The notes beneath the pieces were generated by a model. It did no database searches, was not told the origin of the DNA, and was given only the letters and a program-made list of their open reading frames with translations. A DNA stretch of 42,077 bases from Acidobacteriota bacterium (GTDB taxonomy: Bacteria > Acidobacteriota > Vicinamibacteria > Fen-336), in the NCBI GenBank assembly GCA_031369785.1, contig JANMPI010000044.1:1-42077 (forward strand), in the 5' to 3' direction. Position 1 is the first letter of the stretch; the number at the start of each line of letters is the position of its first letter. Below are positions 15,214 to 36,599 of the stretch, one piece after another. The translations under genes were made by a program, and so were the position numbers.

Positions 15214-15228
15214 TGTAGGCCGCGGAGG

Positions 15229-18240: not shown

Positions 18241-18291
18241 GACTCTCCGTGTTGGGTGCGGCCGAACGCCTAGGTTAGCATCATCTCCCCC

Positions 18292-20106
18292 ATGGACGCG
18301 CCTGCCTTCCCCGACCTGCGCGCGTACCTGGACGTGCTGCGGCGCGACGGCGATCTCGTGACCGTCACCGCCCCCGTAGATGCCCGGCTGGAGGTCGCCG
18401 AGATCCACCGGCGGGTCATCGCCGCGGGGGGCCCTGCCCTCCTGTTCACCAACGTGAATGGCGCCGCGTTCCCGCTGGCGACCAATCTCTTCGGCACGCG
18501 CGCGCGGGTCGAGAGGGCGTTCGGCCGCCGCCCGCTCGACCTCGTCCGCCGCGTGGCCGCGATCGCCCAGCGCGGCGCGCCGCCGACCCTCGGCACGGTG
18601 TGGAAGGAGCGCGACCTCGTCCGCCAGCTCCTGAAAGTCGGCACCCGGCGCACGCGCATGGGCGCGGTGGCCGACGTGGTGTCGAAGGAGGTGCGCCTCG
18701 AACGCCTGCCCGTCATCACGAGCTGGCCGGAGGACGGCGGCCCGTTCGTCACGCTGCCCCTCGTCTACACCGAGCACCCGGAGGGCAAGGGGCACAACCT
18801 CGGCATTTACCGGATGCAGGTGTACGGCCCGCACACCACGGGCATGCACTGGCAGATCGGCAAGGGGGGCGGCTTCCACCACGCGGTGGCGGAAGCGAAG
18901 GGCGAGGCGCTCCCGGTGACGGTGTTCCTGGGCGGCCCGCCGGCGCTGATGCTCGCCGCCATCGCACCGCTGCCGGAGAACGTGCCCGAGCTGATGCTCG
19001 CGTCCCTGGTCGCGGGCCGGCGGCTGTCCACCGTGCCCGGGCCGGGGCCGCACCCGCTGATCGGCGACGCCGAGTTCGCGCTCGTCGGCCACGTGCCCGC
19101 CGGCCTCCGTCATCCGGAAGGGCCCTTCGGCGACCACTACGGCTACTACTCGCTGCAGCATGACTATCCCGTCTTCGAGATCGAGGCCATCGCGCACCGC
19201 AAGGGCGCGATCTACCCCGCGACCGTCGTGGGCAAGCCGCGGCAGGAGGATTTCTTCCTCGGCGATTTCCTCCAGGAGCTGCTGTCCCCGCTCTTCCCCC
19301 TGGTGATGCCCGCCGTCGAGCGGCTGTGGTCGTACGGCGAGCCGGGCTTTCACTCGCTGGCGGCGGCGGTCGTGAAGCAGCGCTACGGCCGCGAGGCGAT
19401 GGCGAGCGCGTTCCGCATCCTGGGCGAGGGACAGCTCTCCCTCACGAAGTTCCTGCTCCTCACCGATCGACCGGTGGACCTGCTCGACTTCAAGGCCACC
19501 CTCGAGCACGTGCTGGAGCGCACGCACCCCGAGACCGACCTCTACGTGTTCTCCAATCTGTCGATGGACACCCTCGACTACACGGGCCCGAAGGTGAACG
19601 AAGGGTCGAAGGGGGTGTGGCTCGGCCTCGGCGATCCCGTGCGCAACCTGCCCCGCGAGTTCACGGGCGGCGCGTCGCTGCCCCCGGAGATCTTCCGCCC
19701 CATCGTCTTCTGCGGCGGCTGCCTCGTCGTCGGCGGACCTCCCTTCGCCGCCGATCCGCAGGCCGCGAAGAGGATCGCCGCCCATCCGGCGTTCGCGGGC
19801 TGGCCGCTCGTGGTCCTCTCCGACGAGCCCCGCCGCGCCACCGCGAGCACGGTCAACTTCCTCTGGACGACGTTCACGAGATTCGAGCCCGCGGCGGACA
19901 TCCACTCGGCGTCCGCCGACGTGACCCGCAATCACATCGCGCGCAAGTCCCCGATCGTCATCGACGCCCGGCTCAAGCCCGGCTTTCCCGCCGAGCTCTT
20001 CTGCGACGAGGAGACGGCGCGCACGGTGAGCCGCCGCTGGCTCGAGTATTTCGACCGCCCGGTCGAGATGGGCGACTCCGGGGCCGGCCACCTCGACCCA
20101 GGCTGA
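18292..20106 (+). CDS. UbiD-family decarboxylase, menaquinone (futalosine-branch) type
   Basis: ORF 18292..20106. N-terminus DLRAYLDVLRRDGDLVTVTAPVD...GPALLFTNVNGAAFPLATNLFG is typical of UbiD. The roughly 600 aa length matches the long UbiD homologues found with mqn genes (MqnL-like). Divergent from mqnE. Confidence 0.85.
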   Translation: MDAPAFPDLRAYLDVLRRDGDLVTVTAPVDARLEVAEIHRRVIAAGGPALLFTNVNGAAFPLATNLFGTRARVERAFGRRPLDLVRRVAAIAQRGAPPTLGTVWKERDLVRQLLKVGTRRTRMGAVADVVSKEVRLERLPVITSWPEDGGPFVTLPLVYTEHPEGKGHNLGIYRMQVYGPHTTGMHWQIGKGGGFHHAVAEAKGEALPVTVFLGGPPALMLAAIAPLPENVPELMLASLVAGRRLSTVPGPGPHPLIGDAEFALVGHVPAGLRHPEGPFGDHYGYYSLQHDYPVFEIEAIAHRKGAIYPATVVGKPRQEDFFLGDFLQELLSPLFPLVMPAVERLWSYGEPGFHSLAAAVVKQRYGREAMASAFRILGEGQLSLTKFLLLTDRPVDLLDFKATLEHVLERTHPETDLYVFSNLSMDTLDYTGPKVNEGSKGVWLGLGDPVRNLPREFTGGASLPPEIFRPIVFCGGCLVVGGPPFAADPQAAKRIAAHPAFAGWPLVVLSDEPRRATASTVNFLWTTFTRFEPAADIHSASADVTRNHIARKSPIVIDARLKPGFPAELFCDEETARTVSRRWLEYFDRPVEMGDSGAGHLDPG

Positions 20107-21528: not shown

Positions 21529-22608
21529 GTGGGACGATTGCTGACGGTCGCCAACATCCTCCGGCTTCTCCTCGTCTTCGTTCCCGTCGCGATCTACCTG
21601 GGGCTGACCCACGCCTCGCCCACCTGGGTGTTCCTCTTCTGCTGCCTCGCCATCCTGCCCCTCGCCGGGTTGATGGGGGAAGCCACCGAGCACATCACCC
21701 ATCACACCGGACCGGGCATCGGCGGGCTGATGAACGCGTCGTTCGGCAACGCGGCCGAGTTGATCATCGCCTTCATCGCGCTCAAGGCGGGCGAGACGGA
21801 GATCGTCAAGGCGTCGCTCACCGGATCCATCATCGGAAACCTCCTGATGGTCCTCGGGCTCTCGATGCTCCTGGGCGGCTGGAAGCACAAGGAGCTGAAG
21901 TTCAGCCGCATCGCCGGCGAGAGCGGCAGCAGCATGATGGTGCTGGCCGTGGTCGCGCTGGTGATCCCCGCCATCTATGCGCAGGTCACGCAGCACCGGT
22001 ACCCCGGCCACATCGAGTCGCTGAGCCTCGACATCTCGTGGGTGCTGCTGTTCACCTACGCGGCCAGCCTCGTCTTCTCGCTGAAGAGCCACAAGCACCT
22101 CTTCGCGGGCGAGGGCGACGACCTCGCGGAGAAGGGTCACGCGGAAGGCGTCTGGTCGATCGGAAAGAGCGTAGCGGTGCTGATCGGCGCGGCCTCGTTC
22201 GTGGGCTGGATCAGCGAGTTCCTCGTCCACGCGGTGGGCCAGGCCGGCGCCGCGATGGGCATGAGCAAGGTCTTCATGGGCGTGGTCGTGGTGGCCATCG
22301 TCGGCAATGCCGCCGAGCACTCCACCGCCATCCTCGTCGCCATGAAGGGAAAGATGGACCTGGCTCTCGGCATCGCCATGGGCTCGTCGATGCAGATCGC
22401 GCTCTTCGTGGCCCCGGTGCTGGTCATCGCCGGCCACTTCATGGGCACCCCGCTCGGCCTCGAGTTCACGATCCTCGAGGTCGTGGCGGTGTTCCTGTCC
22501 GTCGGCCTGGTGTCCCTGCTCGTGCTCGACGGGCGCACCAACTGGTTCGAGGGCGTGCAGCTGCTGGCCGTCTACGCCATCCTCGCGATGGCGTTCTACT
22601 TCGTCTGA
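21529..22608 (+). CDS. CaCA-family cation(Ca2+)/H+ antiporter
   Basis: ORF 21529..22608 (GTG start). Polytopic membrane protein with two alpha-repeat signatures, GNAAELIIAFIALKAG and GNAAEHSTAILVAMKG. Confidence 0.85.
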   Translation: MGRLLTVANILRLLLVFVPVAIYLGLTHASPTWVFLFCCLAILPLAGLMGEATEHITHHTGPGIGGLMNASFGNAAELIIAFIALKAGETEIVKASLTGSIIGNLLMVLGLSMLLGGWKHKELKFSRIAGESGSSMMVLAVVALVIPAIYAQVTQHRYPGHIESLSLDISWVLLFTYAASLVFSLKSHKHLFAGEGDDLAEKGHAEGVWSIGKSVAVLIGAASFVGWISEFLVHAVGQAGAAMGMSKVFMGVVVVAIVGNAAEHSTAILVAMKGKMDLALGIAMGSSMQIALFVAPVLVIAGHFMGTPLGLEFTILEVVAVFLSVGLVSLLVLDGRTNWFEGVQLLAVYAILAMAFYFV

Positions 22609-23207
22609 CCGGGACCGGGGGCGGTGCTCGGATGCGGCGGCGGCGCCGCGTTCCCGCCGGGGATCTGCGGGCCCTCGCGTCCGAGGAAGCGCGGGCGCCC
22701 GGCCAGGAAGAGCCACTGGTCGTAATGATCCTGCCCGTTCATGACGCGCAGGCTTTCGTCGGTGTTGGTGCTGGTCACGCCGACGAAAGGCGCGACGCTG
22801 TCGCCGCGGGCGCCCGTCCCTGACCGCGGCTCGGGGCTCGGGACCGGGCGTCCCGGCATCCCCATGCCGGGCAATGCGGGCATCCGCGGGACCACCACCT
22901 CGCCGGCCTTGATGAACTTCCACTTCCCGTCCTTCGCCATCGGGTCCTCGTAGGCCTGGCGGAGGAACTTGCCCTTCACGAGCACGGCGAGGCTCGGGGG
23001 CGGGGCGCCGCCGTTCTTCTTCTGGTAGCGCTCGATGGCGGACGCGATCTGGTCGCCGCGGAAGTAGAGCTCCTGTTCCCGCTCGTTCTGGGCCACGTAC
23101 TTCCAGCTCGGCATGGCCGCGCCCATCAGGATCAGCATGATGGTCATCGCCGCCATCAGCGCGACGAGGGAGAAGCCGGACTCGGACCCGCGGCCCGCCC
23201 GGCTCAC
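22596..23207 (-). CDS. prepilin-type (pseudo)pilin lacking Glu5
   Basis: ORF 22596..23207. GTG 23207 overlaps the SLT stop (GTGA). N-terminal class III signal G/FSLVALMAAMTIMLILMGAAMP has Ala at +5. The following EREQELYFRGDQIASAIERYQ...FLRQAYEDP...W resembles the two upstream pseudopilins. Pro/Gly-rich C-terminus. Confidence 0.7.
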   Translation of the reverse strand: MSRAGRGSESGFSLVALMAAMTIMLILMGAAMPSWKYVAQNEREQELYFRGDQIASAIERYQKKNGGAPPPSLAVLVKGKFLRQAYEDPMAKDGKWKFIKAGEVVVPRMPALPGMGMPGRPVPSPEPRSGTGARGDSVAPFVGVTSTNTDESLRVMNGQDHYDQWLFLAGRPRFLGREGPQIPGGNAAPPPHPSTAPGPGQTK

Positions 23208-23872
23208 CGGGACTTGGCGGGCTTCGGGTTGGCTGCGGCGGCCTTTTCGGCCCTGGCGGCGCGCTCGTAGCGGGTCATCACGCGGCTGATGTAGTGGTGG
23301 GTCTCGCGGTAGGGCGGAACGCCGCCGTGGCGCTTCACCGCGCCGGGGCCGGCGTTGTAGGCGGCCAGCGCCTTGCCGATGTCGCCGCCGTACTGGGCGA
23401 CGAGCATCCGGAGGTAGCGGGTGCCGCCGTCGAGGTTCTGCGCGGGATCGAGCGCATCCGCGACCCCGAGCTCACGGGCGGTGGCGGGCATCAGCTGCAT
23501 CAGGCCCTGGGCGCCCTTGTTGGACACCGCGTCGGCCTGGAAGCCGGATTCGACCGAGACCACGGCCAGCACCAGGTTCGGATCCAGCCCGTGGCGGCGC
23601 GCGGTGGCGATGGCCAGGGCCCGGATGTCCGTCCCCGCCGCGACGGGGGCCAGGACCTCGTCGATGACCTCGTCGGGAACGAAGCCGCGGATCTCGGCGG
23701 CCACGACGCCGACTTCCCCGCCGCCCTTCAGGCTCAAGAAGATGCGGTCGGCCTCGACCCGGCGACCGGTGACCTTCAGGGTCTGCCCGTTGGCGAGGAC
23801 GGCGATCTCTGCGCGGGCGGACGCCGCCCCGCCCAGGGCCAATAGCGCGATCGTCACGGGAAGGAGCTTCAT
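23204..23872 (-). CDS. secreted lytic transglycosylase (SLT domain)
   Basis: ORF 23204..23872. Signal peptide MKLLPVTIALLALGGAASARA. SLT motifs AVVSVESGFQADAVSNKGAQGLMQLMPATA and AYNAGPG. Confidence 0.85.
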   Translation of the reverse strand: MKLLPVTIALLALGGAASARAEIAVLANGQTLKVTGRRVEADRIFLSLKGGGEVGVVAAEIRGFVPDEVIDEVLAPVAAGTDIRALAIATARRHGLDPNLVLAVVSVESGFQADAVSNKGAQGLMQLMPATARELGVADALDPAQNLDGGTRYLRMLVAQYGGDIGKALAAYNAGPGAVKRHGGVPPYRETHHYISRVMTRYERAARAEKAAAANPKPAKSR

Positions 23873-24555
23873 AGGACGGGGATCGCGAGGCCCCCCGACG
23901 TGATGATACCGCCGGCGGTCGGGACCGAGGCTTTGACGGTGATCACGCCGACGGTGTTACGGACCGTCCGCAGCAGGTCCTCCGCCTCGCCGTTGTTGTT
24001 CGTGAACACCGGGTGCCCCGCACTCTCCAGGAAATCCGTCCGAGGGTCCTCGACGACGAAGAAGGTGACGGGAACGTCGGCCACGGGGTTGCCATTTCCG
24101 TCCACCACGGTGGCGATGACGTGGGTCGTGTTCGAGTTCGTGATGCGCGCGGGCACGGCGCGCAGGCGGATGGCCCGGACGTTGACGTTGCCCACCGTGA
24201 TGACCACCGGATTCGGCGTGCCGACCGTGCTCCCCGAGAAGGCGCGGATGTTGGCGTTCCCGGAGCGGCTGTCGGAGACGAAGCGCGCGGTGGCGACGCC
24301 GTTTCGCGTGCGCGTCTCGGGATCGATCGTGCCGAGGTCGGTCGTCCAGCGCACCACCGTCCCGTCCGGGGCGTAGGTGCCGGCGGGCTCGATCACGAAC
24401 GCGGTGATGTCCGACGTCCCGCCGTGCGCGGCGACGAAGGAAGGATTGGCGCTCAAGGTGATCGTCGAATCCGTGGGCGCGGTCAGGTATGCGCCCCCGC
24501 ACGAAAGCGCGAGGACGGCGGCGATCGCGACGGACGTGCGGCGCAGGGCGCTCAC
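23869..24555 (-). CDS. secreted or lipoprotein-like protein with two Ig-like (Big_1-type) domains, paralogue B
   Basis: C-terminal 228 aa of ORF 23869..25155. GTG 24555 overlaps the upstream stop (GTGA). Contains VSALRRTSVAIAAVLALSCGGAYLTAP..., then THVIATVVDGNGNPVADVPVTFFV...FTNNNGEAEDLLRT...ITVKAS. Confidence 0.7.
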   Translation of the reverse strand: MSALRRTSVAIAAVLALSCGGAYLTAPTDSTITLSANPSFVAAHGGTSDITAFVIEPAGTYAPDGTVVRWTTDLGTIDPETRTRNGVATARFVSDSRSGNANIRAFSGSTVGTPNPVVITVGNVNVRAIRLRAVPARITNSNTTHVIATVVDGNGNPVADVPVTFFVVEDPRTDFLESAGHPVFTNNNGEAEDLLRTVRNTVGVITVKASVPTAGGIITSGGLAIPVL

Positions 24556-25361
24556 TGGACGGGGATCTCGAGCGACCGCACCGCGGGCACGAAACCGCCG
24601 GGGCCCGCGGCCGAGGCGGTCACCGTGATCGTCCCCGGCGTCGTCCGCCGCGTGCGCAGGATGTCCTCCGCCTCCCCGTTGTTGTTGGTGAAGACCGCCG
24701 CGCCGGCGCTCTCGAAGAAGTCGACGTCCTTGTTGATCAGCACCTCGAAGAACACGGGCACGTTTGCCACCGGATTGCCGTCCTTGTCGGTCACGGTCGC
24801 GATCACGTGCGTCGTACGCGACGTCGTGATCCGCGACGGAAACGCGCGCAGCTGCACGAACTTCACCAGCGCGTTGCCGATCGTCACCGTCGTGCGGTCG
24901 ATGTTGTCCGTTCCCGCGACGAAGGAGGCGCTCCCCGCGGACTGCGCGCCGGTGCCCGGGATACGGAGCGTCGTGCTCGTGGTCACCGTGGACGTCGGCG
25001 TCCCCGGGCTGGGGTTCGTCGGCGGGAGCGCGTCGGCGCCCGATTGCGCAGTCACCTCCGCCACGCCGGAGCGGCTGTCCGACACCAGGCGGTTGCGGGC
25101 GATCCCGCGCACCGTCCGCGTCTCGCGATCCACGTGTCCCAGGGTCGTGGTCCACAGCACCACGGTGCCGTCGGGGACGTCGGTCCCGATCGGCTCGGTG
25201 ACGACCGCCATCAGCTCCGACACTCCCCCGTGGGAGGCAATGAAGGTCGGATTGGCGACCAGGGTCAGCGTCGAGCCGGGCGGCGCGGTGAGATAGGCGC
25301 CGCCGCAGCGCACGAGGGCGACCGCGATCGCCGCCGCCGCGAGCGCGGCCCTGCCCTTCAT
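24552..25361 (-). CDS. secreted or lipoprotein-like protein with two Ig-like (Big_1-type) domains, paralogue A
   Basis: ORF 24552..25361. ATG overlaps the secretin stop (ATGA). Contains MKGRAALAAAAIAVALVRCGGAYLTAP... and THVIATVTDKDGNPVANVPVFFEV...FTNNNGEAEDILRT...ITVTAS. Collinear with paralogue B but carries an extra Ser/Thr/Pro-rich inter-domain insert of about 40 aa. Confidence 0.7.
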   Translation of the reverse strand: MKGRAALAAAAIAVALVRCGGAYLTAPPGSTLTLVANPTFIASHGGVSELMAVVTEPIGTDVPDGTVVLWTTTLGHVDRETRTVRGIARNRLVSDSRSGVAEVTAQSGADALPPTNPSPGTPTSTVTTSTTLRIPGTGAQSAGSASFVAGTDNIDRTTVTIGNALVKFVQLRAFPSRITTSRTTHVIATVTDKDGNPVANVPVFFEVLINKDVDFFESAGAAVFTNNNGEAEDILRTRRTTPGTITVTASAAGPGGFVPAVRSLEIPVQ

Positions 25362-27889
25362 TGCGCCACCGCGATGCGGGCCGGCGTCACGACGAGCGTC
25401 GTGGGCCGGCCGCCGGTGGTCACGCTCAGGCTCTGCACGCTGAGCGTCGACGAGCCCGCCTTCAGCGCGCGGAACGTGATCGACGCCACCACGCCGGAGC
25501 CGGCGGTGCCAACGGTCCGCGCGAAGCGTGCGCGCACGCGGCCCGTCTCGAGGCCGCGCTCGGCGGCCACCGGCTGGCCGTCGAGGGTGAGGAGGGAGCC
25601 TGCGGTCACGTCCACCGCTTCGAGGATGGCCGGATCGTAGGCGACGGCCAGATCGACCGCGGTCAGGTCCTGGACTCCCATCACCACGATTCCCACCGTC
25701 GCCGTTCCCCCGGCCCCCACGCGCACTTCGGGCGGGCTGAAGGACGCCGATGCCCTCCCGCTCCCATTCATTCTACCAGCCGGCGACGGCGCGGCCCCTG
25801 CGGCCGGCGTGCGGCCGGGAGCGCGGGTTGGCGACGGCGAAGGCGCCGGCGGACCGAAATCGTCGGGCGCGGGAAACCGCGTCGACGGGGCCAGGGTCGG
25901 AAGCCCCGGCGTCCCCGGTTCGGGTGTCGGCTCGGGAACGAGTGGACCCTGCTCCGGCGGCGGCACGAAGTCGGGCTCGCGCGCGGGCAGCGGCGTCGGC
26001 ACCACCGACGGTGTCGGCGGCGGCGTGGCCGCCGGCGTGCGCACCGCATCCACGTCCGGCATCGACCCCGATACCGTCCCCGGCGGACGGCCGGTCGAGG
26101 GACCGGGCGGCGGCCCGGGGGAGGCGACCGCGGGCGACGGCGAGGGAGTCGGCTCGGGCAGGCCGAACAGGTCGTCGCCCGCGCCCGGGACGCGGACGAC
26201 TTCCTGCGTGCCGATGAACATCGACCGCAGGTCCTCTTCGCTGATCTTCGGCGCGCGCACCAGGTGCGGCGTGATCGAAAAGAGGATCTCGGTCTGGTTC
26301 TTCTTCTTCTTGGTGCCGGTGAGGACGCGGTTCAGGATCGGGATGCTCTGCAGGCCGAGGATCCCGCTGAATGTCTCGCCCTCGTTGTCCTGGAGCAGGC
26401 CGCCGAGCAGCGCGGTCTCGCCGTCCCGGAGCCGCAGGGTGCCGTTGACGTTGCGGGTCAAAAAGGTCGGGAGGGTCTGGCCCGCGAGCGCCGAGTCCCC
26501 GCCGGGAAGGCTGAATTCGGCCGCCATCTCCAGCACGATGTCGCCGTTGGGCGTGACGCGGGGTGTGAGCTCGAGGTTCACCCCGACGTTCCGGTACTGG
26601 AAGGACGTGGCCGGCGCGAACGTGCCGCCCCCACCGCCGGTCTGGGCGGAGGTGAAGGTGGTGACCGGGACGGGCACCTCCTGCCCGATCTTGAGGCTCG
26701 TCTTCTTGCCCTCCGCGGCGCGCAGGCGCGGCGAGGCCAGGATCCGCGTATTGCTCTCGGTCTGGAGGAAGGTCGCGAGGAGAGTGGAGGGAATCGTGAC
26801 GACGAAGTCGGACGCGTTGATCGACGACAGGAGATGCGCACGCAGACTGACTCGGCCGCCCGCGGGGTCCTCGTTCGGCGCGAAGGTGAGCGAGGCCCCC
26901 GAGTTGGCGTTGGCGAGCTCGATCCCGTAGTTCTTGATCCGCTCGCGGTCGACCTCGAGAATCTGCACCTCGACCACCACCTCGCCGTGCGCCTTGTCGT
27001 TCAGGTCCAGCAGCCGCGTCACGATCGCGATCTGGTCCGAGGTGCCGATCACGTTGATGGCGCCGAGGAGCGGGTTGGAGACGATGCGCGCCGTGGTGCC
27101 GACGGCGGTCTTGATGATCGTCTCCACGTCCTTGGTCTCGGCGTTTTGCAGGTAGAACGTCTGCATCAGCATCGCGTCGTAGGCGCGGCGCTTCGCCTGG
27201 GACTCCGCGATGATGATGATCGTGTTCTGGTCGAGGACCTTGTAGAAGAGGCGGTTGACCATCGTGATCTGGTCCAGCGCCTCGCGGAAGGTCACCCCGG
27301 AGAGGCTCACGGTGACGTTCTTGTCCCGGAAGCCCTCGTCGAAGAGGACGTTCACGCCCGCGAGCTTCCCCAGCGTTTCCAGGAGCCGCTGCAGGCTCTG
27401 GTCGCGATAATTGAGCGCGATGGGGGCCAGGCTCCGCGCCGACAGCACGGGCACCGACGGGCGGGCCGCGGCGCGGGCGCGCTTGCTCTCGAAATCGGAC
27501 ATCTCGTTGCGCTGCGCATCGCGGGTGCGGATCCGCCCGCGCACGAGCGCGAGCTCGTCTGACGCGGACTTGTTGCTGGGGTCGTACTTGCTCGCGATGT
27601 CCAGCTCGTCGGCCGCCTTCTCGAGGTCGGCGGCCTGGATGTGCTTGCGCGCGAGGTCGTAGTGCATGCGGCTGGCCTGGATGCGCGCGTTCTCGAGGGT
27701 GATGCGGTACCCGATGTTGTCGGGATCCTTTTGCAGGGCGCGAGTGAGACGGGCCACGGCCAGGTCCCAGTTCCCCCGCTTCGCCTCTTCCTGCCCCTGG
27801 TGGTAGGCCAGCCTCCCCGCGCACGCGACGCCGGCGAGGGCGGCCACGGCCAGGATCACGGCGAGACGGCGATTCACGGCTCTCTGCAT
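25358..27889 (-). CDS. secretin (GspD/PilQ family) with an N-terminal TPR module and a C-terminal Pro-rich linker plus cohesin-like domain
   Basis: ORF 25358..27889, 843 aa. TPR-like region at aa 25-120. N-domains include FYLQNAETKDVETIIK...INVIGTSDQIAIVTRLLDLNDK. Secretin core: VVVEVQILEVDRERIKNYG...ILASPRLRAAEGKKTSLKIGQEVPV...FQYRNVGVNLELTPRV...RLRDGETALLGGL...GLQSIPILNRV...EILFSITPHLV. Then a Pro-rich stretch at aa 575-715 and a beta-rich domain at aa 716-843. Confidence 0.9.
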   Translation of the reverse strand: MQRAVNRRLAVILAVAALAGVACAGRLAYHQGQEEAKRGNWDLAVARLTRALQKDPDNIGYRITLENARIQASRMHYDLARKHIQAADLEKAADELDIASKYDPSNKSASDELALVRGRIRTRDAQRNEMSDFESKRARAAARPSVPVLSARSLAPIALNYRDQSLQRLLETLGKLAGVNVLFDEGFRDKNVTVSLSGVTFREALDQITMVNRLFYKVLDQNTIIIIAESQAKRRAYDAMLMQTFYLQNAETKDVETIIKTAVGTTARIVSNPLLGAINVIGTSDQIAIVTRLLDLNDKAHGEVVVEVQILEVDRERIKNYGIELANANSGASLTFAPNEDPAGGRVSLRAHLLSSINASDFVVTIPSTLLATFLQTESNTRILASPRLRAAEGKKTSLKIGQEVPVPVTTFTSAQTGGGGGTFAPATSFQYRNVGVNLELTPRVTPNGDIVLEMAAEFSLPGGDSALAGQTLPTFLTRNVNGTLRLRDGETALLGGLLQDNEGETFSGILGLQSIPILNRVLTGTKKKKNQTEILFSITPHLVRAPKISEEDLRSMFIGTQEVVRVPGAGDDLFGLPEPTPSPSPAVASPGPPPGPSTGRPPGTVSGSMPDVDAVRTPAATPPPTPSVVPTPLPAREPDFVPPPEQGPLVPEPTPEPGTPGLPTLAPSTRFPAPDDFGPPAPSPSPTRAPGRTPAAGAAPSPAGRMNGSGRASASFSPPEVRVGAGGTATVGIVVMGVQDLTAVDLAVAYDPAILEAVDVTAGSLLTLDGQPVAAERGLETGRVRARFARTVGTAGSGVVASITFRALKAGSSTLSVQSLSVTTGGRPTTLVVTPARIAVAQ

Positions 27890-28440
27890 CAGTTCCCCTT
27901 GAGAGGTATGCGTTGGACCTGTTCGGATCCGACCTGCTGGACGTCGACCGACTCGATCCCTATCTTCACGATGCGGAAGCGGTTCCCCACCATCTCACCG
28001 ACCTGCCCGGTGAGGATCTCGCCGCGATCCGTCATCAGCATCGCCACCTTCACGCCCCGGCGCTCCACCGCGCCGATGTACTTGACGTTCAAGGGCGGCA
28101 ACGGCGTCGGCGTGGGCACGGTGACGGGCGGCGGCGCCTCGCGCGCGGCGATCTCCTCCGGGGTCTCGGGGACCGGCGACGGCATCGGCGGCGGCGGGGG
28201 GGCGGCGAAGTCGAACAGGTCGCGGGTGCCGAGCCCGGGGGCGGGGGCCGGGTTCGCGATGCGCGCGAAATCGATCACCGGCAGCGGCGACGGCGGCGGC
28301 CCCGCCTTGCGGCTGCGCTCTCCCGCGCGCACCGCCGCCGTGGGGCCGGGCGCATCCGCCGGCAGCAGCAGGTAGGCGACGAGCAGGAGCGCCGCTCCCG
28401 CGCCGGCGAAGATCACCCATCGCGGCCGGTCCCTCACCAT
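27889..28440 (-). CDS. PilP/GspC(HR-domain)-like inner-membrane-anchored connector protein
   Basis: C-terminal 183 aa of ORF 27889..28554, from ATG 28440. TM anchor WVIFAGAGAALLLVAYLLL, Pro-rich linker, then a small beta domain YIGAVERRGVKVAMLMTDRGEILTGQVGEMVGNRFRIVKIGIESVDVQ. Lies directly upstream of the secretin and shares 1 nt with its ATG. Confidence 0.55.
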   Translation of the reverse strand: MVRDRPRWVIFAGAGAALLLVAYLLLPADAPGPTAAVRAGERSRKAGPPPSPLPVIDFARIANPAPAPGLGTRDLFDFAAPPPPPMPSPVPETPEEIAAREAPPPVTVPTPTPLPPLNVKYIGAVERRGVKVAMLMTDRGEILTGQVGEMVGNRFRIVKIGIESVDVQQVGSEQVQRIPLKGN

Positions 28441-28829
28441 TCGTTGTACGGCGAGCCCATCGTCGACAGCATCTCGGAGGCGCTGTGGACGTCGTAGATG
28501 CCCGCCGGCTCGTCGGGATTCTCGGCGTCGGGCTCCGCCGGAACCTCCTGCCAATCGGCCTGATGGGTGAACGGGTCGATGGGGATCTTGCGCAGGTAGC
28601 CGGCGGCGACGATCGCCTCCAGCGACTCCGGGTACTTGCCCTTGTCGGCCTGGTACTGGTCGATGAGATCGCGGAACCGGTACAGGTCCTCGCGGAGCAC
28701 CGCCTCCTTGGCCTGGATGATCGCGGACTTGTAGTTGGGAAGCGCGATCGCGGCCAGGATCCCGAGGATGCTCACCACCACCACGAGCTCGATGAGCGTG
28801 AAGCCGCTCGCGCGCGTGGCCTTCACCAT
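28434..28829 (-). CDS. GspG-like major pseudopilin
   Basis: C-terminal 131 aa of ORF 28434..28946, from ATG 28829. Contains MVKATRASG/FTLIELVVVVSILGILAAIALPNY (Glu5 present), then DLIDQYQADKGKYPESLEAIV..YLRKIPIDP...W...YDVHS...YNEW, as in T2SS GspG. Confidence 0.8.
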   Translation of the reverse strand: MVKATRASGFTLIELVVVVSILGILAAIALPNYKSAIIQAKEAVLREDLYRFRDLIDQYQADKGKYPESLEAIVAAGYLRKIPIDPFTHQADWQEVPAEPDAENPDEPAGIYDVHSASEMLSTMGSPYNEW

Positions 28830-29296
28830 GCGGCGTACTTCGACCCGTCGAGGGCCGTCCCCCCGCTGCGGGAGTGGATGTCGTACACGTTCTCGCCGCA
28901 CCAGCTGCGATCGTCGGCGTCGTCCTGGTAACAGCGCATCTCCCATTCCGCCTTTCCGGTCATCGGGTCGAGGGGGATCTGGCGCAGGAACTTGAGCTTC
29001 GTGTCGAGCTTCCCCACCTGGCTCACGCCCTTCACGAGGGTCTCGAGATCGGGCGGATAGCCCTCGCTCCCGAGCTTCACGTCGGTGCCGCCGATCTTCC
29101 CCTGGTCGACCGCGAGCTTGTAGCGGTCGATGGCCGTGCGCAGCACGCGCAGCTCGCGGCGGAGCTCGATCTCCTTGTTGCGGGTGCGCATCACTTTCGC
29201 CGTGGGAAGGATCGCGGAAGCCAGGATGAGGAGGATCGTCGCCGTGGCGATGAGCTCCAGATAGGTGAACCCCGCCGCGGCGTGCTCAGTCCGCAT
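28823..29296 (-). CDS. GspG-like pseudopilin (second paralogue, with a Cys pair)
   Basis: ORF 28823..29338. Start ATG 29296 (or 29305). Contains MRTEHAAAG/FTYLELIATATILLILASAILP (Glu5 present), KEIELRRELRVLRTAIDRYK, FLRQIPLDP, RCYQDDADDRSWCG and a C-terminal YAAW. Confidence 0.75.
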   Translation of the reverse strand: MRTEHAAAGFTYLELIATATILLILASAILPTAKVMRTRNKEIELRRELRVLRTAIDRYKLAVDQGKIGGTDVKLGSEGYPPDLETLVKGVSQVGKLDTKLKFLRQIPLDPMTGKAEWEMRCYQDDADDRSWCGENVYDIHSRSGGTALDGSKYAAW

Positions 29297-29852
29297 CGCC
29301 GACATCCGTGTCCACGAAGTACACCGAGAGGACGACATTCAGGCTCGTCGAGTGGCCGGAGCCGCCGCTGTTGTCCTCGCGCAGCGCGATCGAATCCACG
29401 GTGACGATGTGGGGGAGGGCCTCCAGCCGTTGCAGGAACGACGCGACCTGCGGGTAGCTGCCGGAGATCGGCATCGTGATGCGGAAGCGGGCCAGGTTGT
29501 CGCTCCCCTTCACCGCCTCCTTCTGATAGGACCGGCTGCCCAGGGTGAGGCCGAGCTGGCGCGCAATCCCGGCGATCGCCTCCTGGATCATCAGCAGCGA
29601 TTCCTTGCGGCCGAGGGCCTGGTAGAAGCGCGTCACGTCGGTGGTGTTGGCTTCGATCGTCCGCGCCCGCTCGCGAACGCCTTCGACGCGCGTGCGCTCC
29701 TCGGCGACTTCCTGGCGCAGCACTACCGCCTGGGCGGCGATCGTACGCTCCTGCGACGCCCGCGGATGCGTGTAGGCGAGGTAGGTGCCGACGTTCAGGG
29801 CCAGCAAAACGAGGGCGGGCACGAGCAGCCGCCGCCGCCAGAAGGGCCTCAT
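29286..29852 (-). CDS. PilO/GspM-like inner-membrane platform protein
   Basis: C-terminal 188 aa of ORF 29286..30554. ATG 29852 overlaps the pilN-like stop (ATGA). Single TM LLVPALVLLALNVGTYLAY, a coiled coil, then ARFRITMPISGSYPQVASFLQRLEALPHIVTVDSIAL. Confidence 0.6.
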   Translation of the reverse strand: MRPFWRRRLLVPALVLLALNVGTYLAYTHPRASQERTIAAQAVVLRQEVAEERTRVEGVRERARTIEANTTDVTRFYQALGRKESLLMIQEAIAGIARQLGLTLGSRSYQKEAVKGSDNLARFRITMPISGSYPQVASFLQRLEALPHIVTVDSIALREDNSGGSGHSTSLNVVLSVYFVDTDVGDAD

Positions 29853-30430
29853 GGGCCACCCGTGGGCGCGGGAGCGGGCGGACCCACCAGCGCGGCCGTG
29901 GCCTGCGGGCGGTATCGGATCCCGTAGCTGAAGGAGTTCCCCGTCTCGCTCTTCGGATAGACGCCGTAGAAATCCCCGCCCCCCTCCAGCACGCGGACGA
30001 ATTCCCAGCCCGCTTCCCGCGAGCGCACGGTCGCCTCGACGTCCAGCTCGACCTGGCCCTTGCGCAGCGACGGCGAGATGGAGGTGAGCCGGACGCCCAT
30101 CGGCATCAGCTGCTCCAGGCGCACGAAGAGGCCGGTCCACGAGAAGGCGCGCCGGTCCACGATCTCCTTCACCATGTTCCATTGCGCGAGGGTTGCCGGC
30201 GGCGGCGTCTCCGTCTTCAGCGTGCGCCCCTCGTTCTGGAGCGTGGCCAGCTCGAGCTGAAGGGCCGCCACCTCGCGATGCCGCTCGGACGTCCGCGCGG
30301 GGAGCAGGTTGCGGATCACCACCGCGTGCCACCCGGTGAGCGCGACCAGAAGGACGGCGGCGGCGGCGAAGCTGGTGGCGGCCAGGCGCTCGTTGCGGAA
30401 GGGGCGCTCGGCGAGGTTGAGCGGCTTCAC
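29849..30430 (-). CDS. PilN-like inner-membrane platform protein
   Basis: C-terminal 193 aa of ORF 29849..30721. GTG 30430 overlaps the pilM-like stop (GTGA). Contains VKPLNLAERPFRNERL, TM FAAAAVLLVALTGWHAVVI, a coiled coil and a periplasmic domain. Confidence 0.65.
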   Translation of the reverse strand: MKPLNLAERPFRNERLAATSFAAAAVLLVALTGWHAVVIRNLLPARTSERHREVAALQLELATLQNEGRTLKTETPPPATLAQWNMVKEIVDRRAFSWTGLFVRLEQLMPMGVRLTSISPSLRKGQVELDVEATVRSREAGWEFVRVLEGGGDFYGVYPKSETGNSFSYGIRYRPQATAALVGPPAPAPTGGP

Positions 30431-31446
30431 GCGGGGGCCCCGAGCGATGCGGCCGCGCCGGCCAGGGCCTGCGAGACTTCGGCGGGCGCGCCCCCGAGCA
30501 TCGTCCACGCATCGAGCACGGACGGCACGAACCCGACGGCGGGGGCCAGCCCATCGACGGCTTCGCCCGGCGAGACGACCGAGGAGCGGACGAACGCGCT
30601 GGCGATGCCGCTGCCGCCGAGCCGCTCGCGGTAGTAGATGAGCGTGCTCGAGACCTCGCGCATGACCTCCGCCGGAGACGCCGCGGCGGCGCCGGACAGG
30701 GTGCGCAGCAAAATCGGCCATCCGTCCCGCACGAGGACGAGGGTCACGTACCCCTCGTCCCAGTTGACGAGGAGACCGTCGCCCGGCACCCGTGCCGGGA
30801 ACGCCGCGCGCACGAGGGCGAGGCCGGCGATCTCCACCAGGCCCGGCTCGAGGCCGAGGCCGCGGCAGGCTTCCTCGTATTGCGCGACCACGGGACCGAG
30901 GGTCGCCGCGACCACGATGGTGTCGGCCGGGGTGTCGCCGCCGATCGCGTAGGCCACGCGCGCGTCACGGATGTCGAACGGGATCGACTTCCGGAGGCGG
31001 AAGCGGAGGAGCTCGTCGATCTCGCGCGGCTTGCGCGGCCGGACCTCGACCGCGGGCACGAGGGTCACGCGCGCGATGGTGTCCGGAAGCACGAGCGCGA
31101 CCCGCGCTCCGCCGAGAATGCCGGCCCGCTCGAGAGCGCCGTGGATCGCCTGGCCGAACCGCGACACGTCGGTGATGTTCGGCTGCGTGAGGCTGAGGGC
31201 GAGCGCCCCCGGCGGAAGGTCGAGCACGGCCGCCGCGGCCACGAGGAGCCGGCCCTTCTCCCTCCGCAGGCGCAGCACCCCCACGCTGGAGGCGCGCACT
31301 TCGATCGCGACCAGGGGACGGTCGGGCTCGAGGAACTGCCGGCGCATCCAGGCCAGCCCGCGCGCGCCCACCGGCGCCGCGGCCGGCGGCCTTGCCTCCG
31401 GCGCCACGGGATCGCGCATCACGACGTCGCCCGCGGGGCTCGCCAT
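30427..31446 (-). CDS. PilM-like (actin-fold, GspL-cytoplasmic-domain-like) platform protein
   Basis: ORF 30427..31449. Contains LVAIEVRASSVGVLRL...ARVALVLPDTIARVTLVP...EIDELLRFRLRKSIPFDIRDARVAYAI...LVNWDEGYVTLVLV. No TM segment. Start uncertain: ATG 31446, GTG 31449 or ATG 31347. Confidence 0.65.
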   Translation of the reverse strand: MASPAGDVVMRDPVAPEARPPAAAPVGARGLAWMRRQFLEPDRPLVAIEVRASSVGVLRLRREKGRLLVAAAAVLDLPPGALALSLTQPNITDVSRFGQAIHGALERAGILGGARVALVLPDTIARVTLVPAVEVRPRKPREIDELLRFRLRKSIPFDIRDARVAYAIGGDTPADTIVVAATLGPVVAQYEEACRGLGLEPGLVEIAGLALVRAAFPARVPGDGLLVNWDEGYVTLVLVRDGWPILLRTLSGAAAASPAEVMREVSSTLIYYRERLGGSGIASAFVRSSVVSPGEAVDGLAPAVGFVPSVLDAWTMLGGAPAEVSQALAGAAASLGAPA

Positions 31447-31471
31447 CACGCGGCCGGCGACGCGCGTCGCG

Positions 31472-33096
<1,625 letters not shown>

Positions 33097-33097
<1 letters not shown>

Positions 33098-34317
33098 TAG
33101 ACCTGCTTCTCCACCGCGCTGATCGCCTCGAACAGCGGCAGGTAGAACGCGAGCAGCATGCCGGCGACGATCACCGCCATCAGCACCAGCATGATCGGCT
33201 CGACCAGCGCGATGGCCTTGGCCATGCGGTTCTCGAGCTCCTCGTCGTAGAAGTCGGCGACCGCGGTGAGCATGTCGCCGAGGGCCCCCGTCTGCTCGCC
33301 GACCTTCACCATCTCGAGAGCGAGGTTGTCGACCATCGCCGTGGTCTCGAGCGCCGTGGTGAGGCTCTTGCCTTCGCGGATGTGATGGGTGGCGGACGAG
33401 ATCGCCTCCGCCATGGCGCGGTTCCCCACCGACGCGGCCGCGACGTCCATGGCATTCACCAGCGGAAGCCCGCCGGTCAGGAGCGCGGAGAGGGTGCGCG
33501 CGAGCTGGCTGGTCGCGTACATGCGCATGAGGCCGCCGATGTACGGCACGCGCAGCATCGCGCGGTCGAGGACGATCCCCGATCCCTCGCGGCGAAGCCA
33601 CGTGGCGACGCCGATCCACGCCCCGGCGATCACGAGCACGAAGAGCAGCAGGTGGCCGCCGACGAAATCCGCCATCGCGATGAGGACCCGCGTGATCAGC
33701 GGCAGCTCGACGTTCAGCCCCTGGTAGAAGTCCTGGAACTGCGGGATCACCTTGACCATCAGGATGATGACCAGCGCAATCATCATCACCAGCAGCATGA
33801 TCGGGTAGACGGAGGCGGAGACGGCCTTCTTCTTCAAGGACTGGTTGAGGCGCATGTACTGAACGAAGCGCCGCAGCATCCCCTCCAGGCTGCCGCTGCG
33901 CTCGCCGGCCGCGATGCTCGCGGCCAGCATCGGCGGGTAGAGGGCCCCTTCGGTGCGGAACGCCTCCGAGAGCGCGATCCCCGACTTCACCTTCTCGCGA
34001 ATCGCGGTCAGCGACCGGCGGAAGACCTCGTCGCGCTGCCGCTCGAGGAGGATGTCCAGGGCCTGCAGGAGCGGGAGGCCGGCCTTCAGGAGGGCCGCCA
34101 TCTCCTGCCCGAAGAGGAGGAGCCGGTCGGGGTCGACGCGCGGGCGGCGGAGGCCCAGCTGTTTGAGGCCCATTCCCCGGCGGACGGAGAAGAGGTAATA
34201 CCCCTTCTGGTCGAGGTCGTTGCGCAGCGCCGCCTCGTCCGGAGCGGTGAATGTCTGCTCCACCACCTCGCCCGTCGGAGTCCCCACCCGGCAAACGTAT
34301 TCCATGGCTGTAGCCAA
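33097..34317 (-). CDS. GspF/PilC-family inner-membrane platform protein
   Basis: ORF 33097..34317 (TTG 34317, or ATG 34305). Two T2SSF repeats: LLFGQEMAALLKAGLPLLQAL...SEAF...YPPMLAASIAAGERSG, and TSQLARTLSALLTGGLPLVNAM...TTAL...LALEMVKVGEQTGAL. Confidence 0.9.
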
Positions 34318-34363: not shown

Positions 34364-35050
34364 TTACGTCGGGTCCACGAATTTGTACCCCGTCCCGTGG
34401 ATGGTCATGATGAAGCGCGGCTCGGATCCGGAATCGCCGATCTTGGCCCGCAGCTTCGCGATGTGCGTATCGACGGTACGGGTGGAGGGATAGCTCTCGT
34501 AGCCCCACACGTCCTCGAGCAGCTGATCGCGGGAAACGGTGTCGCCCTTGCGCTCGATGAGATAGCGCAGGAGCTCGAACTCCCGCGGCGAGAGGTCGAG
34601 GGGCTCCCCGCCCTTCTTGGCGCGGTACACCTCGAAGTCGAGCTCGATGTCCGAGAAGCGGTAGCGCGAAAGGCGCTTCTTGCCGCCTTCGGTGCGGCGC
34701 AGGATGGCGCGCACGCGGGCCAGCAGCTCGCGGATCGAGAAGGGCTTGGTCACGTAGTCGTCGGCCCCGAGCTCGAGGCCCACCACCTTGTCGATCTCCT
34801 GCCCGCGCGCGGTTAGCATCACGATGGGGGCGTCGAACCCTTCGCCGCGCAGCGCCTTGCACACCTCGAGGCCGGAGAGGACGGGCAGCAAGATGTCGAG
34901 GATCACGAGGTCGGGCTTCAACGTCCGCGCCTTCTCGAGGCCGACCGCGCCGTCCCCGGCGGTGATCACCTCGTACCCCTCGAACTCGAAGTTGTCCTTC
35001 AGCCCGAGCACCATGTCGGGTTCGTCCTCGACGATCAGGATCTTGGCCAC
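34364..35050 (-). CDS. OmpR/PhoB-family response regulator
   Basis: C-terminal 228 aa of ORF 34364..35302, from GTG 35050. Receiver KILIVEDEPDM...DLVILDILLP...MLTA...DDYVTKPF. Winged-helix output LSPREFELLRYL...TVDTHIAKLRAKI...IHGTGYKF. Confidence 0.9.
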   Translation of the reverse strand: MAKILIVEDEPDMVLGLKDNFEFEGYEVITAGDGAVGLEKARTLKPDLVILDILLPVLSGLEVCKALRGEGFDAPIVMLTARGQEIDKVVGLELGADDYVTKPFSIRELLARVRAILRRTEGGKKRLSRYRFSDIELDFEVYRAKKGGEPLDLSPREFELLRYLIERKGDTVSRDQLLEDVWGYESYPSTRTVDTHIAKLRAKIGDSGSEPRFIMTIHGTGYKFVDPT

Positions 35051-35060
35051 CGGTCTACCT

Positions 35061-36599
35061 CTATGCCTTCTGCGCCACGGGAATGACGAGCGTGAACGTG
35101 CTCCCCTTACCCGGAGTGCTGTCGATGTCCACCGTGCCGCCGTGCGCTTCCATGATGTGCTCCACGAGCGAAAGCCCCAGGCCGCTGCCCTTGGTCTCGT
35201 GCACGAGGCTCGCCTCGCCCCGGTAGAACTTCTCGAAGATCTTCCTGTGCTCCGCCTTCGGCACCCCGATCCCGCGGTCGGAAACCGAGATGGTGACGGC
35301 ATCGCCGGCGCGTCGCACGGTCAGGGCGATCGACTTCGCCTCGCGCGAGTACTTGATCGCATTATTGACGAGGTTCAGCAGCGCCTGGCCGAGCGCCTCG
35401 CTGTCCGCTTCGACTTCCGGCAGGTCGGGCTCGATGTCGACGGTGAGCTCGAAACCCTGCTGCTCGATCGGAAAGCGGTAGGCCTCGAGGACCTCGTTCA
35501 CGATCCGCGCCACGCTCGTGGGCGCGAACCGGTACTCCTTGCGCCCGGCCTCGATGCGCGAGAAGTCGAGGATGTTGTTGATGAGCTGGGTGAGCCGCTG
35601 GCTCTCCTTGTTGATGACGCGGTAGTACTGCCGGGCCTTGTCCTCGGAGGGGACGCGGCCGAGCTCGAGGGTTTCGGCGAACAGGCGGATGAGGGCGAGC
35701 GGCGTCTTCAGCTCGTGGCTCACGTTGGCCACGAAGTCGCTCTTCAGGCGCGACAGGTGCGCCTCGCGCCGCACGTTGCTGTAGACGAGGAAGAGCCCCG
35801 CGCCGAGCATCAGGTCGATGAAGCCGATGAGGGCCAGGGTGCCCATCTCCCAGCGGCGCACGTCCTGCTCGATGGAGAGATCGCGGTAGCGCAGGGCGAG
35901 GCGCAGTCCACGCAGCGACGGCGTCTCCATCGCGCGCTCGACCTCGAACTTGCCGTGGGGCGTGGGCGCGGTCTCGTAGACGGTGCGGCCGACGGCGTCC
36001 GTGACGCGCACGACGGTGGCCTGGTCGGGGTTCACGAAGTCGTGGGCGAAGTAGTCGGGGATGAGCTGGTTGAGGATGAAGTCGGGCTTGAAACGGAAGC
36101 GGAGGACGCCCGCCGCCTTGCCCTCGGGGTCGACCCACGGCATCACGTCCTCCGTGCGTGGCGCGGCCGGGCCCAGGCCCTTGAGGATGTCGCGCGGCGA
36201 CTGCGCGCGGCTCTCCTCCACCGGCAGCCAGTGCCGGCTCGGCGATGAGGCGCCCTCGAGGTGCAGGGTCTCGAAGATGTGGCCGTCGAGGCCGGCGCTC
36301 TCGAGTGCGATCGCGATGACGTGCTCGCGGCCGTCGAGCAGGCGCTCCCACCCGACCATCTGCGCGGACTCGAGGGCGCGGGCCTGGGCGGCGCGCGCGA
36401 GGTCCTTCTCGATGTCGGCGAGGGTGTTGGCGGCGCGCTTGAAGCCCATCTCCTTGTTCGCCTTCGCGAGCTGGGGCACGAACTCCACGGACACGTACGA
36501 AAGCGCCAGCGACGGGAGCAGCACCGCGCCGACGAAGATGGACGCCAGGCGACCCTTTGGATCGTGGGGCGCCGTGACGCGATTCAGGGGGTCGGACAT
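35061..36599 (-). CDS. sensor histidine kinase with two TM helices and a periplasmic domain of about 240 aa
   Basis: ORF 35061..36599. H-box FVANVSHELKTPL, N-box LLNLVNNAIKYS, G1 SDRGIGV and G2 GSGLGLSL. TM2 runs directly into the DHp domain with no obvious HAMP. Confidence 0.9.
   Translation of the reverse strand: MSDPLNRVTAPHDPKGRLASIFVGAVLLPSLALSYVSVEFVPQLAKANKEMGFKRAANTLADIEKDLARAAQARALESAQMVGWERLLDGREHVIAIALESAGLDGHIFETLHLEGASSPSRHWLPVEESRAQSPRDILKGLGPAAPRTEDVMPWVDPEGKAAGVLRFRFKPDFILNQLIPDYFAHDFVNPDQATVVRVTDAVGRTVYETAPTPHGKFEVERAMETPSLRGLRLALRYRDLSIEQDVRRWEMGTLALIGFIDLMLGAGLFLVYSNVRREAHLSRLKSDFVANVSHELKTPLALIRLFAETLELGRVPSEDKARQYYRVINKESQRLTQLINNILDFSRIEAGRKEYRFAPTSVARIVNEVLEAYRFPIEQQGFELTVDIEPDLPEVEADSEALGQALLNLVNNAIKYSREAKSIALTVRRAGDAVTISVSDRGIGVPKAEHRKIFEKFYRGEASLVHETKGSGLGLSLVEHIMEAHGGTVDIDSTPGKGSTFTLVIPVAQKA

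Follow-up and report, generated by a model that had tools for sequence, protein, structure and literature searches.

Secretins are the outer-membrane gates shared by type II and type III secretion, type IV pili (T4P) and filamentous-phage export, and both their targeting to the membrane and cargo recognition by type II secretion systems (T2SS) are active questions. The contig JANMPI010000044.1 (assembly GCA_031369785.1) of an Acidobacteriota bacterium from the Vicinamibacteria lineage Fen-336, which was analyzed over its whole length of 42,077 nucleotides (the window), raises the question of what a secretin does with a TPR-like module at its N-terminus and a cohesin at its C-terminus. The product of the gene in question is the outer-membrane secretin of a conserved acidobacterial machine that is T2SS/T4P-like (a type IV filament machine), and the combination of a predicted lipid anchor and TPR-like module at one end with a tethered cohesin at the other is a real, conserved design. 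The reading favored here, to which a probability of roughly 55% is given, is drawn partly by analogy with known secretins: the protein would be a liposecretin that targets itself to the membrane, and the tethered cohesins on its periplasmic tail would let a partner dock.

The secretin gene occupies positions 25358–27889 of the reverse strand and is open for 843 codons. Third-position GC content remains at 0.83–0.95 across all four segments of the gene, so the open reading frame (ORF) reads as one uninterrupted gene. A false fusion created by an assembly or frameshift artifact was considered and rejected, given the continuous codon-position GC and the occurrence of the single ORF in more than 200 independent assemblies. 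From N- to C-terminus, the 843-residue protein consists of a signal peptide with TPR-like hairpins, N-domains with the secretin core, a Pro-rich linker and a cohesin. A preliminary description of the window had proposed this four-part anatomy together with a lipoprotein signal on the secretin itself. The anatomy is borne out by Pfam, AlphaFold2 (AF2) modeling, Foldseek and linker composition, with coordinates that proved right for every part (Table 1), and the lipoprotein signal is strongly indicated by an invariant, sole Cys, as discussed below.

The C-terminal domain was recovered as a cohesin by three independent routes. Pfam Cohesin (PF00963) matches residues 721–819 with 41.5 bits against a gathering threshold of 24.1. 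A profile made from residues 701–843 and 19 homologous tails (alignment A1) returns cohesins in a search of the PDB, with an E value of 6e-6. The AF2 model of residues 701–843 is all-beta, with a predicted local distance difference test score (pLDDT) of 93.8 and a predicted template-modeling score (pTM) of 0.85; it has the nine-strand jelly-roll fold, and 50 of its 50 best Foldseek matches in the PDB are cohesins. The top match is 2xdh, a non-cellulosomal cohesin of Archaeoglobus fulgidus, with template-modeling (TM) scores of 0.75/0.78 and an E value of 2e-9. In the same model, the extreme C-terminus of the secretin is the last beta-strand of the cohesin, with no free peptide beyond it.

In sequence databases, the cohesin profile finds 8141 clusters at 50% identity (E ≤ 0.001). 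The nearest relatives that are not secretins (P0122, P0124, P0126 and P0132) contain 3–5 cohesins and a CarboxypepD_reg domain, and three of the four end in a C-terminal sorting domain of the type IX secretion system (T9SS). These proteins look like scaffoldin-like surface proteins of Gram-negative bacteria, and the cohesin module of the secretin therefore appears to belong to a lineage used for protein docking.

Upstream of the cohesin, the channel identifies the protein as a member of the secretin superfamily, since PF00263 scores 124.9 bits against a threshold of 27.5 (E 3e-36). This domain aligns with the solved channels of GspD, PilQ, RcpA and pIV, and its closest solved relatives are T2SS GspD channels (6i1x, E 6e-30). 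The Secretin_N and N0-like matches that precede it stay below threshold, and the Secretin_N match (PF03958) is present in many homologues according to a precomputed Pfam list. None of the NCBIfam models reaches its cut-off on the 843-residue protein. The T2SS GspD model (TIGR02517) gives 142.4 bits against 351 and spans residues 298–548 only, the T4aP PilQ model (TIGR02515) gives 105.7 against 284, and the model of the MSHA secretin MshL (TIGR02519) gives 104.3 against 250. PilQ systems have N-terminal AMIN domains and a pilT retraction ATPase; Pfam detects neither AMIN nor any other cell-wall-binding domain in the secretin, and no PilT gene was seen among the window ORFs scanned. The protein is thus a secretin-superfamily member that bears a true cohesin and fails the GspD, PilQ, MshL and TPR-pilotin tests, the last of which is described with the N-terminus below. 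The conserved segment that follows the channel may be S-domain-like, judging by its position.

The N-terminal sequence, MQRAVNRR-LAVILAVAALAGVA-C23, comprises an n-region and a hydrophobic h-region with a Cys at its end. Cys23 is the sole Cys of the protein. Only one Cys is likewise present in 216 of 227 full-length homologues from two clades combined, and in these 227 the residue at -1 to the Cys is always G, A or S. The secretin itself thus carries a lipoprotein signal peptide with a lipobox Cys, as a liposecretin does. This is strong sequence evidence for a lipoprotein, with lipidation predicted at Cys23, and the predicted signal fits a self-targeting liposecretin.

After the Cys, the preliminary description had recognized TPR-like repeats of pilotin-like character, and the TPR-like half of that description fits the modeled fold. 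The AF2 model of residues 24–142 has five helices, which form two TPR-like hairpins and one long helix (pLDDT 88.7), and a family profile matches the first repeat to consensus TPR proteins in the PDB (E 1e-11). The Pfam TPR models TPR_19, TPR_2 and TPR_11, which cover residues 28–105, all fall just under their gathering thresholds (TPR_19 23.3 against 25). Foldseek returns designed or consensus generic TPRs at TM scores of about 0.35, and PilF, PilW and Tgl are absent from the top 50 matches. The NCBIfam scores for PilW (20.3 bits against a cut-off of 154) and Tgl (15.4 against 225) are low, and with only about two hairpins the module falls outside the T4P and Tad pilotins (PilF/PilW/Tgl/TadD). 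It is TPR-like with about two repeats, generic and not specifically pilotin-like. A further NCBIfam match of the N-terminus, to Myxococcus TraC (E 1.5e-7), was dropped as a generic similarity between lipoproteins with a signal peptide and TPRs (PMC8546572).

The third distinctive part, the tether between the secretin core and the cohesin, had been noticed in the preliminary description as an extreme Pro/Ser/Thr/Ala stretch, and its composition is indeed extreme. Its 141 residues are 31% Pro and 72% Pro, Ser, Thr, Ala and Gly combined, compared to 3.8% Pro in the rest of the protein. Across homologues, the linker measures 54–168 residues (median 107) and contains 24–43% Pro. Composition is kept while length is not, as would be expected of a spacer under selection for composition. 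Within the tether, at residues ~598–645 (~25950–26100 of the window, reverse strand), a motif of the form GPxxGRPPGTVSP...TPAA...PTPLP is conserved in many Vicinamibacteria homologues; members with short linkers do not have it, and neither does the sister clade. This segment may be a short linear motif.

The architecture extends far beyond the window. A search with the full-length protein finds 1119 proteins at E ≤ 1e-10. The top 120 (clade 1) each exceed 850 bits, and the same cohesin forms the C-terminus in 118 of them. A scan of one genome per species, whose patterns come from the full-length alignment A2 and are specific to the Vicinamibacteria clade so that cultured acidobacteria may have escaped it, gives 49 loci, nearly all of them from Vicinamibacteria or Acidobacteriota metagenome-assembled genomes (MAGs). 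The cohesin is detectable in 44 of these species-level loci. Among the five others, three are short contigs in which the gene runs off the end, one is fragmented (L040) and one has only a distant secretin (L049). A locus from a Terriglobia MAG (L047) encodes a 736-residue protein with the same plan of lipobox, TPR, secretin, short Pro linker and cohesin. With this protein as query, a second and deeper clade of 275 proteins from other acidobacterial MAGs is found, in which the A1 profile detects a C-terminal cohesin in 119 of the 120 members listed; Pfam often misses it. From these comparisons, the architecture is old, widespread and under purifying selection within Acidobacteriota.

Whether the design is already a common, annotated secretin subtype also bears on its novelty, a point on which the preliminary description had made its claim depend. 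It is common in sequence databases and machine-annotated, under source names such as "general secretion pathway protein D" (JGI) and [quoted passage not shown] (NCBI), and is not a curated or published subtype. A literature search on secretins with cohesins or on liposecretins, whose coverage did not extend to the non-cellulosomal cohesin survey of Peer et al. 2009, found no paper that links a secretin with a cohesin.

The secretin gene lies in a cluster on the reverse strand with the order histidine kinase, response regulator, GspF, GspE, PilM, (PilN), PilO/GspM, two GspG-like genes, (PilP-like), secretin, immunoglobulin-like (Ig) lipoproteins, SLT and pseudopilin, and this order is kept in about 40 of the 49 loci. 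At both ends the secretin gene shares bases with its neighbors: its start with the upstream stop (TGATG), and its stop with the start codon of the first Ig gene (ATGA). By order and overlaps, the gene belongs to an operon that is conserved and translationally coupled and that encodes a T2SS/T4P-like machine. The ATPase lies between PilB and GspE, the platform protein is nearest to GspF, the closest solved secretins are GspD channels and no PilT is seen among the window ORFs scanned; the machine is therefore regarded as a divergent member of the type IV filament group in which T2SS and T4P traits are mixed.

How these parts might work together can be proposed as follows. The precursor would be exported and lipidated on Cys23, and the Lol pathway would sort the secretin to the inner leaflet of the outer membrane. 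There, the lipid anchor would, together with the two TPR-like hairpins next to it, replace a separate pilotin, as in the liposecretin HxcQ of the Pseudomonas aeruginosa Hxc T2SS, which is self-piloted by its lipid anchor (Viarre 2009, as cited in PMC12475490). Protomers would then form the usual multimeric secretin barrel, for which the matched solved relatives have 12–15 chains of one sequence per entry. The chain would exit the barrel at the position of the GspD/RcpA S-domain, on the periplasmic face. The C-terminal S-domains of secretins bind outer-membrane lipoprotein pilotins at that face (PMC10499894), which places secretin C-termini in the periplasm and, by analogy, makes a periplasmic location the most likely one for the tether and cohesin here. 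The preliminary description had put the module at the outer-membrane pore; this can be kept with the qualification that it most likely hangs into the periplasm. A flexible Pro-rich spacer of 54–168 residues would end in one cohesin per protomer, and each pore would thereby have a crown of tethered cohesins that sweeps the periplasm with a reach of tens of nanometers, if extended. The cohesins would dock a protein partner and keep it at the machine; this partner might be cargo or some other component of the envelope.

A more specific form of this proposal, which seems doubtful, is that the cohesin crown is a cargo receptor, such that a T2SS-like machine uses a docking code borrowed from cellulosome-type assemblies. 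In that case, the crown could either select exoproteins and enrich them at the secretin's periplasmic mouth or hold them at the pore after export.

Several observations weigh against a self-targeting liposecretin with periplasmic docking modules. The well-studied cohesins are all extracellular, and a periplasmic cohesin would be unusual. In about 40% of clade-1 homologues the lipobox is atypical, with P or E at -2/-3, and fails a PROSITE-style pattern. The secretin, the ATPase and the platform protein all score far below equivalog cut-offs, so the machine cannot be assigned to T2SS or to T4P. Lastly, strict and relaxed regular expressions found no dockerin-like paired calcium-loop motif in the window and 50 related loci, which total 0.94 Mb.

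The last point also bears on who the partner of the cohesin might be. The preliminary description had named the adjacent Ig-like proteins, which are Big_1 lipoproteins by the present analysis, as an example of a partner that the tethered module could dock at the pore, and the neighborhood gives this idea some appeal. Of the 49 Vicinamibacteria-type loci, 41–42 have an Ig-like gene, in almost every case as the next gene behind the secretin, and the ATGA overlap in the window indicates translational coupling. Type II dockerins, moreover, come with an Ig-like X module. However, the Ig proteins have no dockerin-like motif, and in two sister-clade loci (L047 and L050) just two pseudopilin genes come behind the secretin; neither an Ig lipoprotein nor an ATPase is nearby, and SLT is missing within 9 kb. 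These secretins keep the TPR, tether and cohesin, and the cohesin therefore does not require the Ig lipoprotein as a companion. An exploratory mirror-tree analysis of 26 loci and the window, which controls for GspE/GspF divergence and in which sequences are non-independent and paralogous Ig genes complicate orthology, gives a partial correlation of 0.08 for cohesin and Ig versus 0.50 for Ig and the secretin core, the maximum of the matrix. This covariation hints that the Ig lipoprotein may be a secretin-associated outer-membrane accessory protein and suggests that, if it touches the secretin, it contacts the barrel or N-domains. The proposed docking of the Ig proteins has thus become very unlikely, and the partner is probably neither a classical dockerin encoded nearby nor the adjacent Ig lipoprotein. 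A cohesin that sits on the cell surface and retains dockerin-bearing secreted enzymes beside the pore, as a minimal cellulosome-like display, would agree with the extracellular location of characterized cohesins, with the multi-cohesin, T9SS-tailed proteins that are its nearest non-secretin relatives, and with the Pro/Thr-rich linkers typical of scaffoldins. It is hard to reconcile with the periplasmic S-domain of solved secretins, which binds inner-leaflet lipoproteins, with the lack of an evident outer-membrane route for 12–15 folded domains, or with the failure to find dockerin genes near any of the loci, and surface display is accordingly considered quite improbable.

Other readings need no secreted partner. 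The cohesin-like beta-sandwich could be an envelope anchor or spacer, either by binding peptidoglycan or another glycan or by packing into an extra ring, in a role like that of the AMIN domains in PilQ. Such a role would suit a secretin that lacks AMIN or other cell-wall-binding domains and whose operon has its own lytic transglycosylase, and the cohesin jelly-roll resembles carbohydrate-binding modules (CBMs). In the same exploratory mirror-tree analysis, the cohesin covaries slightly more with inner-membrane and pseudopilin components (PilM, PilO and pseudopilins, 0.21–0.28) than with outer-membrane parts, a weak signal. On the other hand, the top 50 fold matches are all bona fide cohesins and not CBMs, and the variable tether (54–168 residues) is contrary to a fixed ring, which leaves an anchoring role unlikely. 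It is also conceivable that protomers bind one another, the TPR module of the first holding the tail or the cohesin of the second, as a built-in pilotin/S-domain pair that drives or stabilizes assembly. The TPR module and cohesin tail are specific to this secretin family and are kept together in both deep clades, and there is a precedent in the Tad system, where the last four residues of the secretin RcpA lie in the TPR groove of TadD (PMC10499894). Here, however, the C-terminus is a beta-strand of the cohesin instead of a free peptide, members with a short linker lack the conserved tether motif GRPPGTVS...PTPLP, as does clade 2, and the partial correlation of TPR and cohesin is only 0.10; an internal pair of this kind would be surprising.

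The proposed self-targeting liposecretin with tethered cohesins can be compared to several known systems. It resembles HxcQ in its N-terminal lipoprotein signal (predicted here), an anchor of a kind that can replace a pilotin, and in its T2SS-like gene cluster. To our knowledge, HxcQ has neither a TPR module nor a C-terminal globular domain, unlike this secretin. With T2SS GspD (6i1x, 6hcg, 5wq7) it shares the best match of N3 and core (E 6e-30 to 1e-23) and GspE/F/G/M-like operon genes, but its partners are of PilM/N/O type instead of GspL type, and a 141-residue tether and a cohesin extend past the S-domain position. As in PilF/PilW/Tgl of T4aP and TadD of Tad systems, repeats of the TPR kind (TPR-like here) on an outer-membrane lipoprotein (predicted here) are tied to a secretin. 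Those pilotins are separate proteins, however, and PMC10499894 gives 13 helices for PilF, while here about two hairpins are fused to the secretin N-terminus and the family scores lie far under their cut-offs. Finally, the tail is like the non-cellulosomal cohesins (2xdh, and 2jh2 and 2w1n of Clostridium perfringens) in its nine-strand jelly-roll (TM 0.63–0.78) and in being a single cohesin within a protein unrelated to cellulose degradation. It differs in that its host protein is an outer-membrane secretin and its location is probably periplasmic.

Table 1. Parts of the secretin and genes of the surrounding cluster, with positions in the window and the evidence for each
Feature	Position	Strand	Evidence
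Signal peptide and lipobox-like end (aa 1-23, ...AGVA/C23)	27821..27889	-	Read from sequence; Cys invariant in homologues
TPR-like helical module (aa 24-142), two hairpins and long helix	27464..27820	-	AF2; profile; Pfam below threshold; Foldseek
N0-like domain (aa 159-227)	27209..27415	-	Pfam FecR_C and STN, both below threshold; NCBIfam PilQ aligns from aa 156
Secretin_N (N1/N3-type) domain (aa 242-299)	26993..27166	-	Pfam PF03958 E 2.9e-4, below threshold
Secretin channel domain (aa 375-545)	26255..26767	-	Pfam PF00263, E 3e-36
Conserved post-secretin segment (aa 546-574, APKISEEDLRSM..VRVPG..LFG)	26168..26254	-	Conserved columns in full-length alignment A2
Pro-rich tether (aa 575-715)	25745..26167	-	Composition
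C-terminal cohesin domain (aa 716-843)	25361..25744	-	Pfam; AF2; Foldseek; homologue survey
Histidine kinase and OmpR-type response regulator, cluster head	34364..36599	-	Pfam Response_reg, Trans_reg_C, HisKA, HATPase_c; syntenic in 32/49
Platform, GspF/PilC-like	33097-34317	-	Pfam T2SSF E 3e-57; nearest GspF, below equivalog cut-off
Assembly ATPase, GspE/PilB-like	31472-33100	-	Pfam T2SSE E 6e-132, MshEN; between PilB and GspE models, below cut-offs
PilM-like	30427-31449	-	NCBIfam PilM below cut-off; conserved synteny
PilN-like by position	within 29849-30721	-	Position; conserved synteny
PilO/GspM-like	~29286-29900	-	Pfam PilO, T2SSM_b; NCBIfam GspM below cut-off; conserved synteny
Two GspG-like pseudopilins	28434-28946, 28823-29338	-	N_methyl motif; TIGR01710 below cut-off; adjoin secretin in both clades
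Gene before the secretin, with membrane anchor, Pro-rich region and small beta domain	27889..28554	-	Synteny in 20 loci (tblastn)
Two tandem Ig-like (Big_1) lipoprotein genes	24552-25361, 23869-24555	-	Pfam Big_1; lipobox-like LALSC/LVRC ends
Lytic transglycosylase (SLT)	23204-23872	-	Pfam SLT E 4e-30; syntenic in 41-47 loci
Third pseudopilin-like gene	22596-23207	-	N_methyl; lacks Glu5 (GFSLVAL...); syntenic in 41-47 loci

Some of the neighboring genes have features of their own. The gene immediately upstream of the secretin has no family or PDB match, and it may be PilP/GspC-like, going by its position. The two tandem Ig-like lipoproteins are paralogues with 49% identity to each other; the gene is duplicated in the window, and most related loci appear to have a single copy. 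A PDB sequence search with the Ig lipoprotein gave nothing useful. The third pseudopilin-like protein ends in a Pro/Gly-rich tail and may be a minor pseudopilin or one at the tip. Next to the two-component system on its upstream side, at 36679–38460 of the reverse strand, a 593-residue polytopic membrane protein has no Pfam or NCBIfam match and is found beside the cluster in only 3 of the 49 loci.

On the other side, at 14704–20106, genes for MqnC/CofH-type radical SAM and UbiD-family proteins flank the cluster, and genes for an M23 peptidase and a Na/Ca exchanger adjoin it. For the UbiD, M23 and exchanger genes, synteny with the secretion cluster holds in a subset of 9–28 of the 49 loci, which points to a stable chromosomal context and not a mobile island. 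The remainder of the window contains housekeeping genes, among them those for a 2-oxoacid dehydrogenase complex, catalase, UbiD and PdxA.

Two observations concern related loci. In the Terriglobia-type sister clade, L047 (193–3249) and L050 (10001–13087) show a minimal unit that consists of the TPR-secretin-cohesin gene and two GspG-like pseudopilin genes, with no ATPase, platform or PilMNO genes within 10 kb. A contig of 3.1 kb (L043, CAYWOO010000241.1) has a Vicinamibacteria-type secretin-Ig-SLT fragment and is filed under a "Dehalococcoidia" MAG. Dehalococcoidia are not known to have an outer membrane, and this contig is most likely mis-binned.

The secretin that a whole phylum of abundant soil bacteria appears to use joins a predicted lipid anchor and a TPR-like module to a cohesin on a tether. 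Should the cohesin prove to be no more than a spacer or an anchor, these proteins would still offer a clean natural case in which a secretin has pilotin functions fused to it. The cargo-receptor proposal, if true, would be a new substrate-recognition principle for type II secretion, a process with a long-elusive secretion signal. Were the cohesin to bind cargo or a partner in the envelope, it would provide a testable handle on recruitment to the pore and would extend cohesin-type docking to the Gram-negative envelope.

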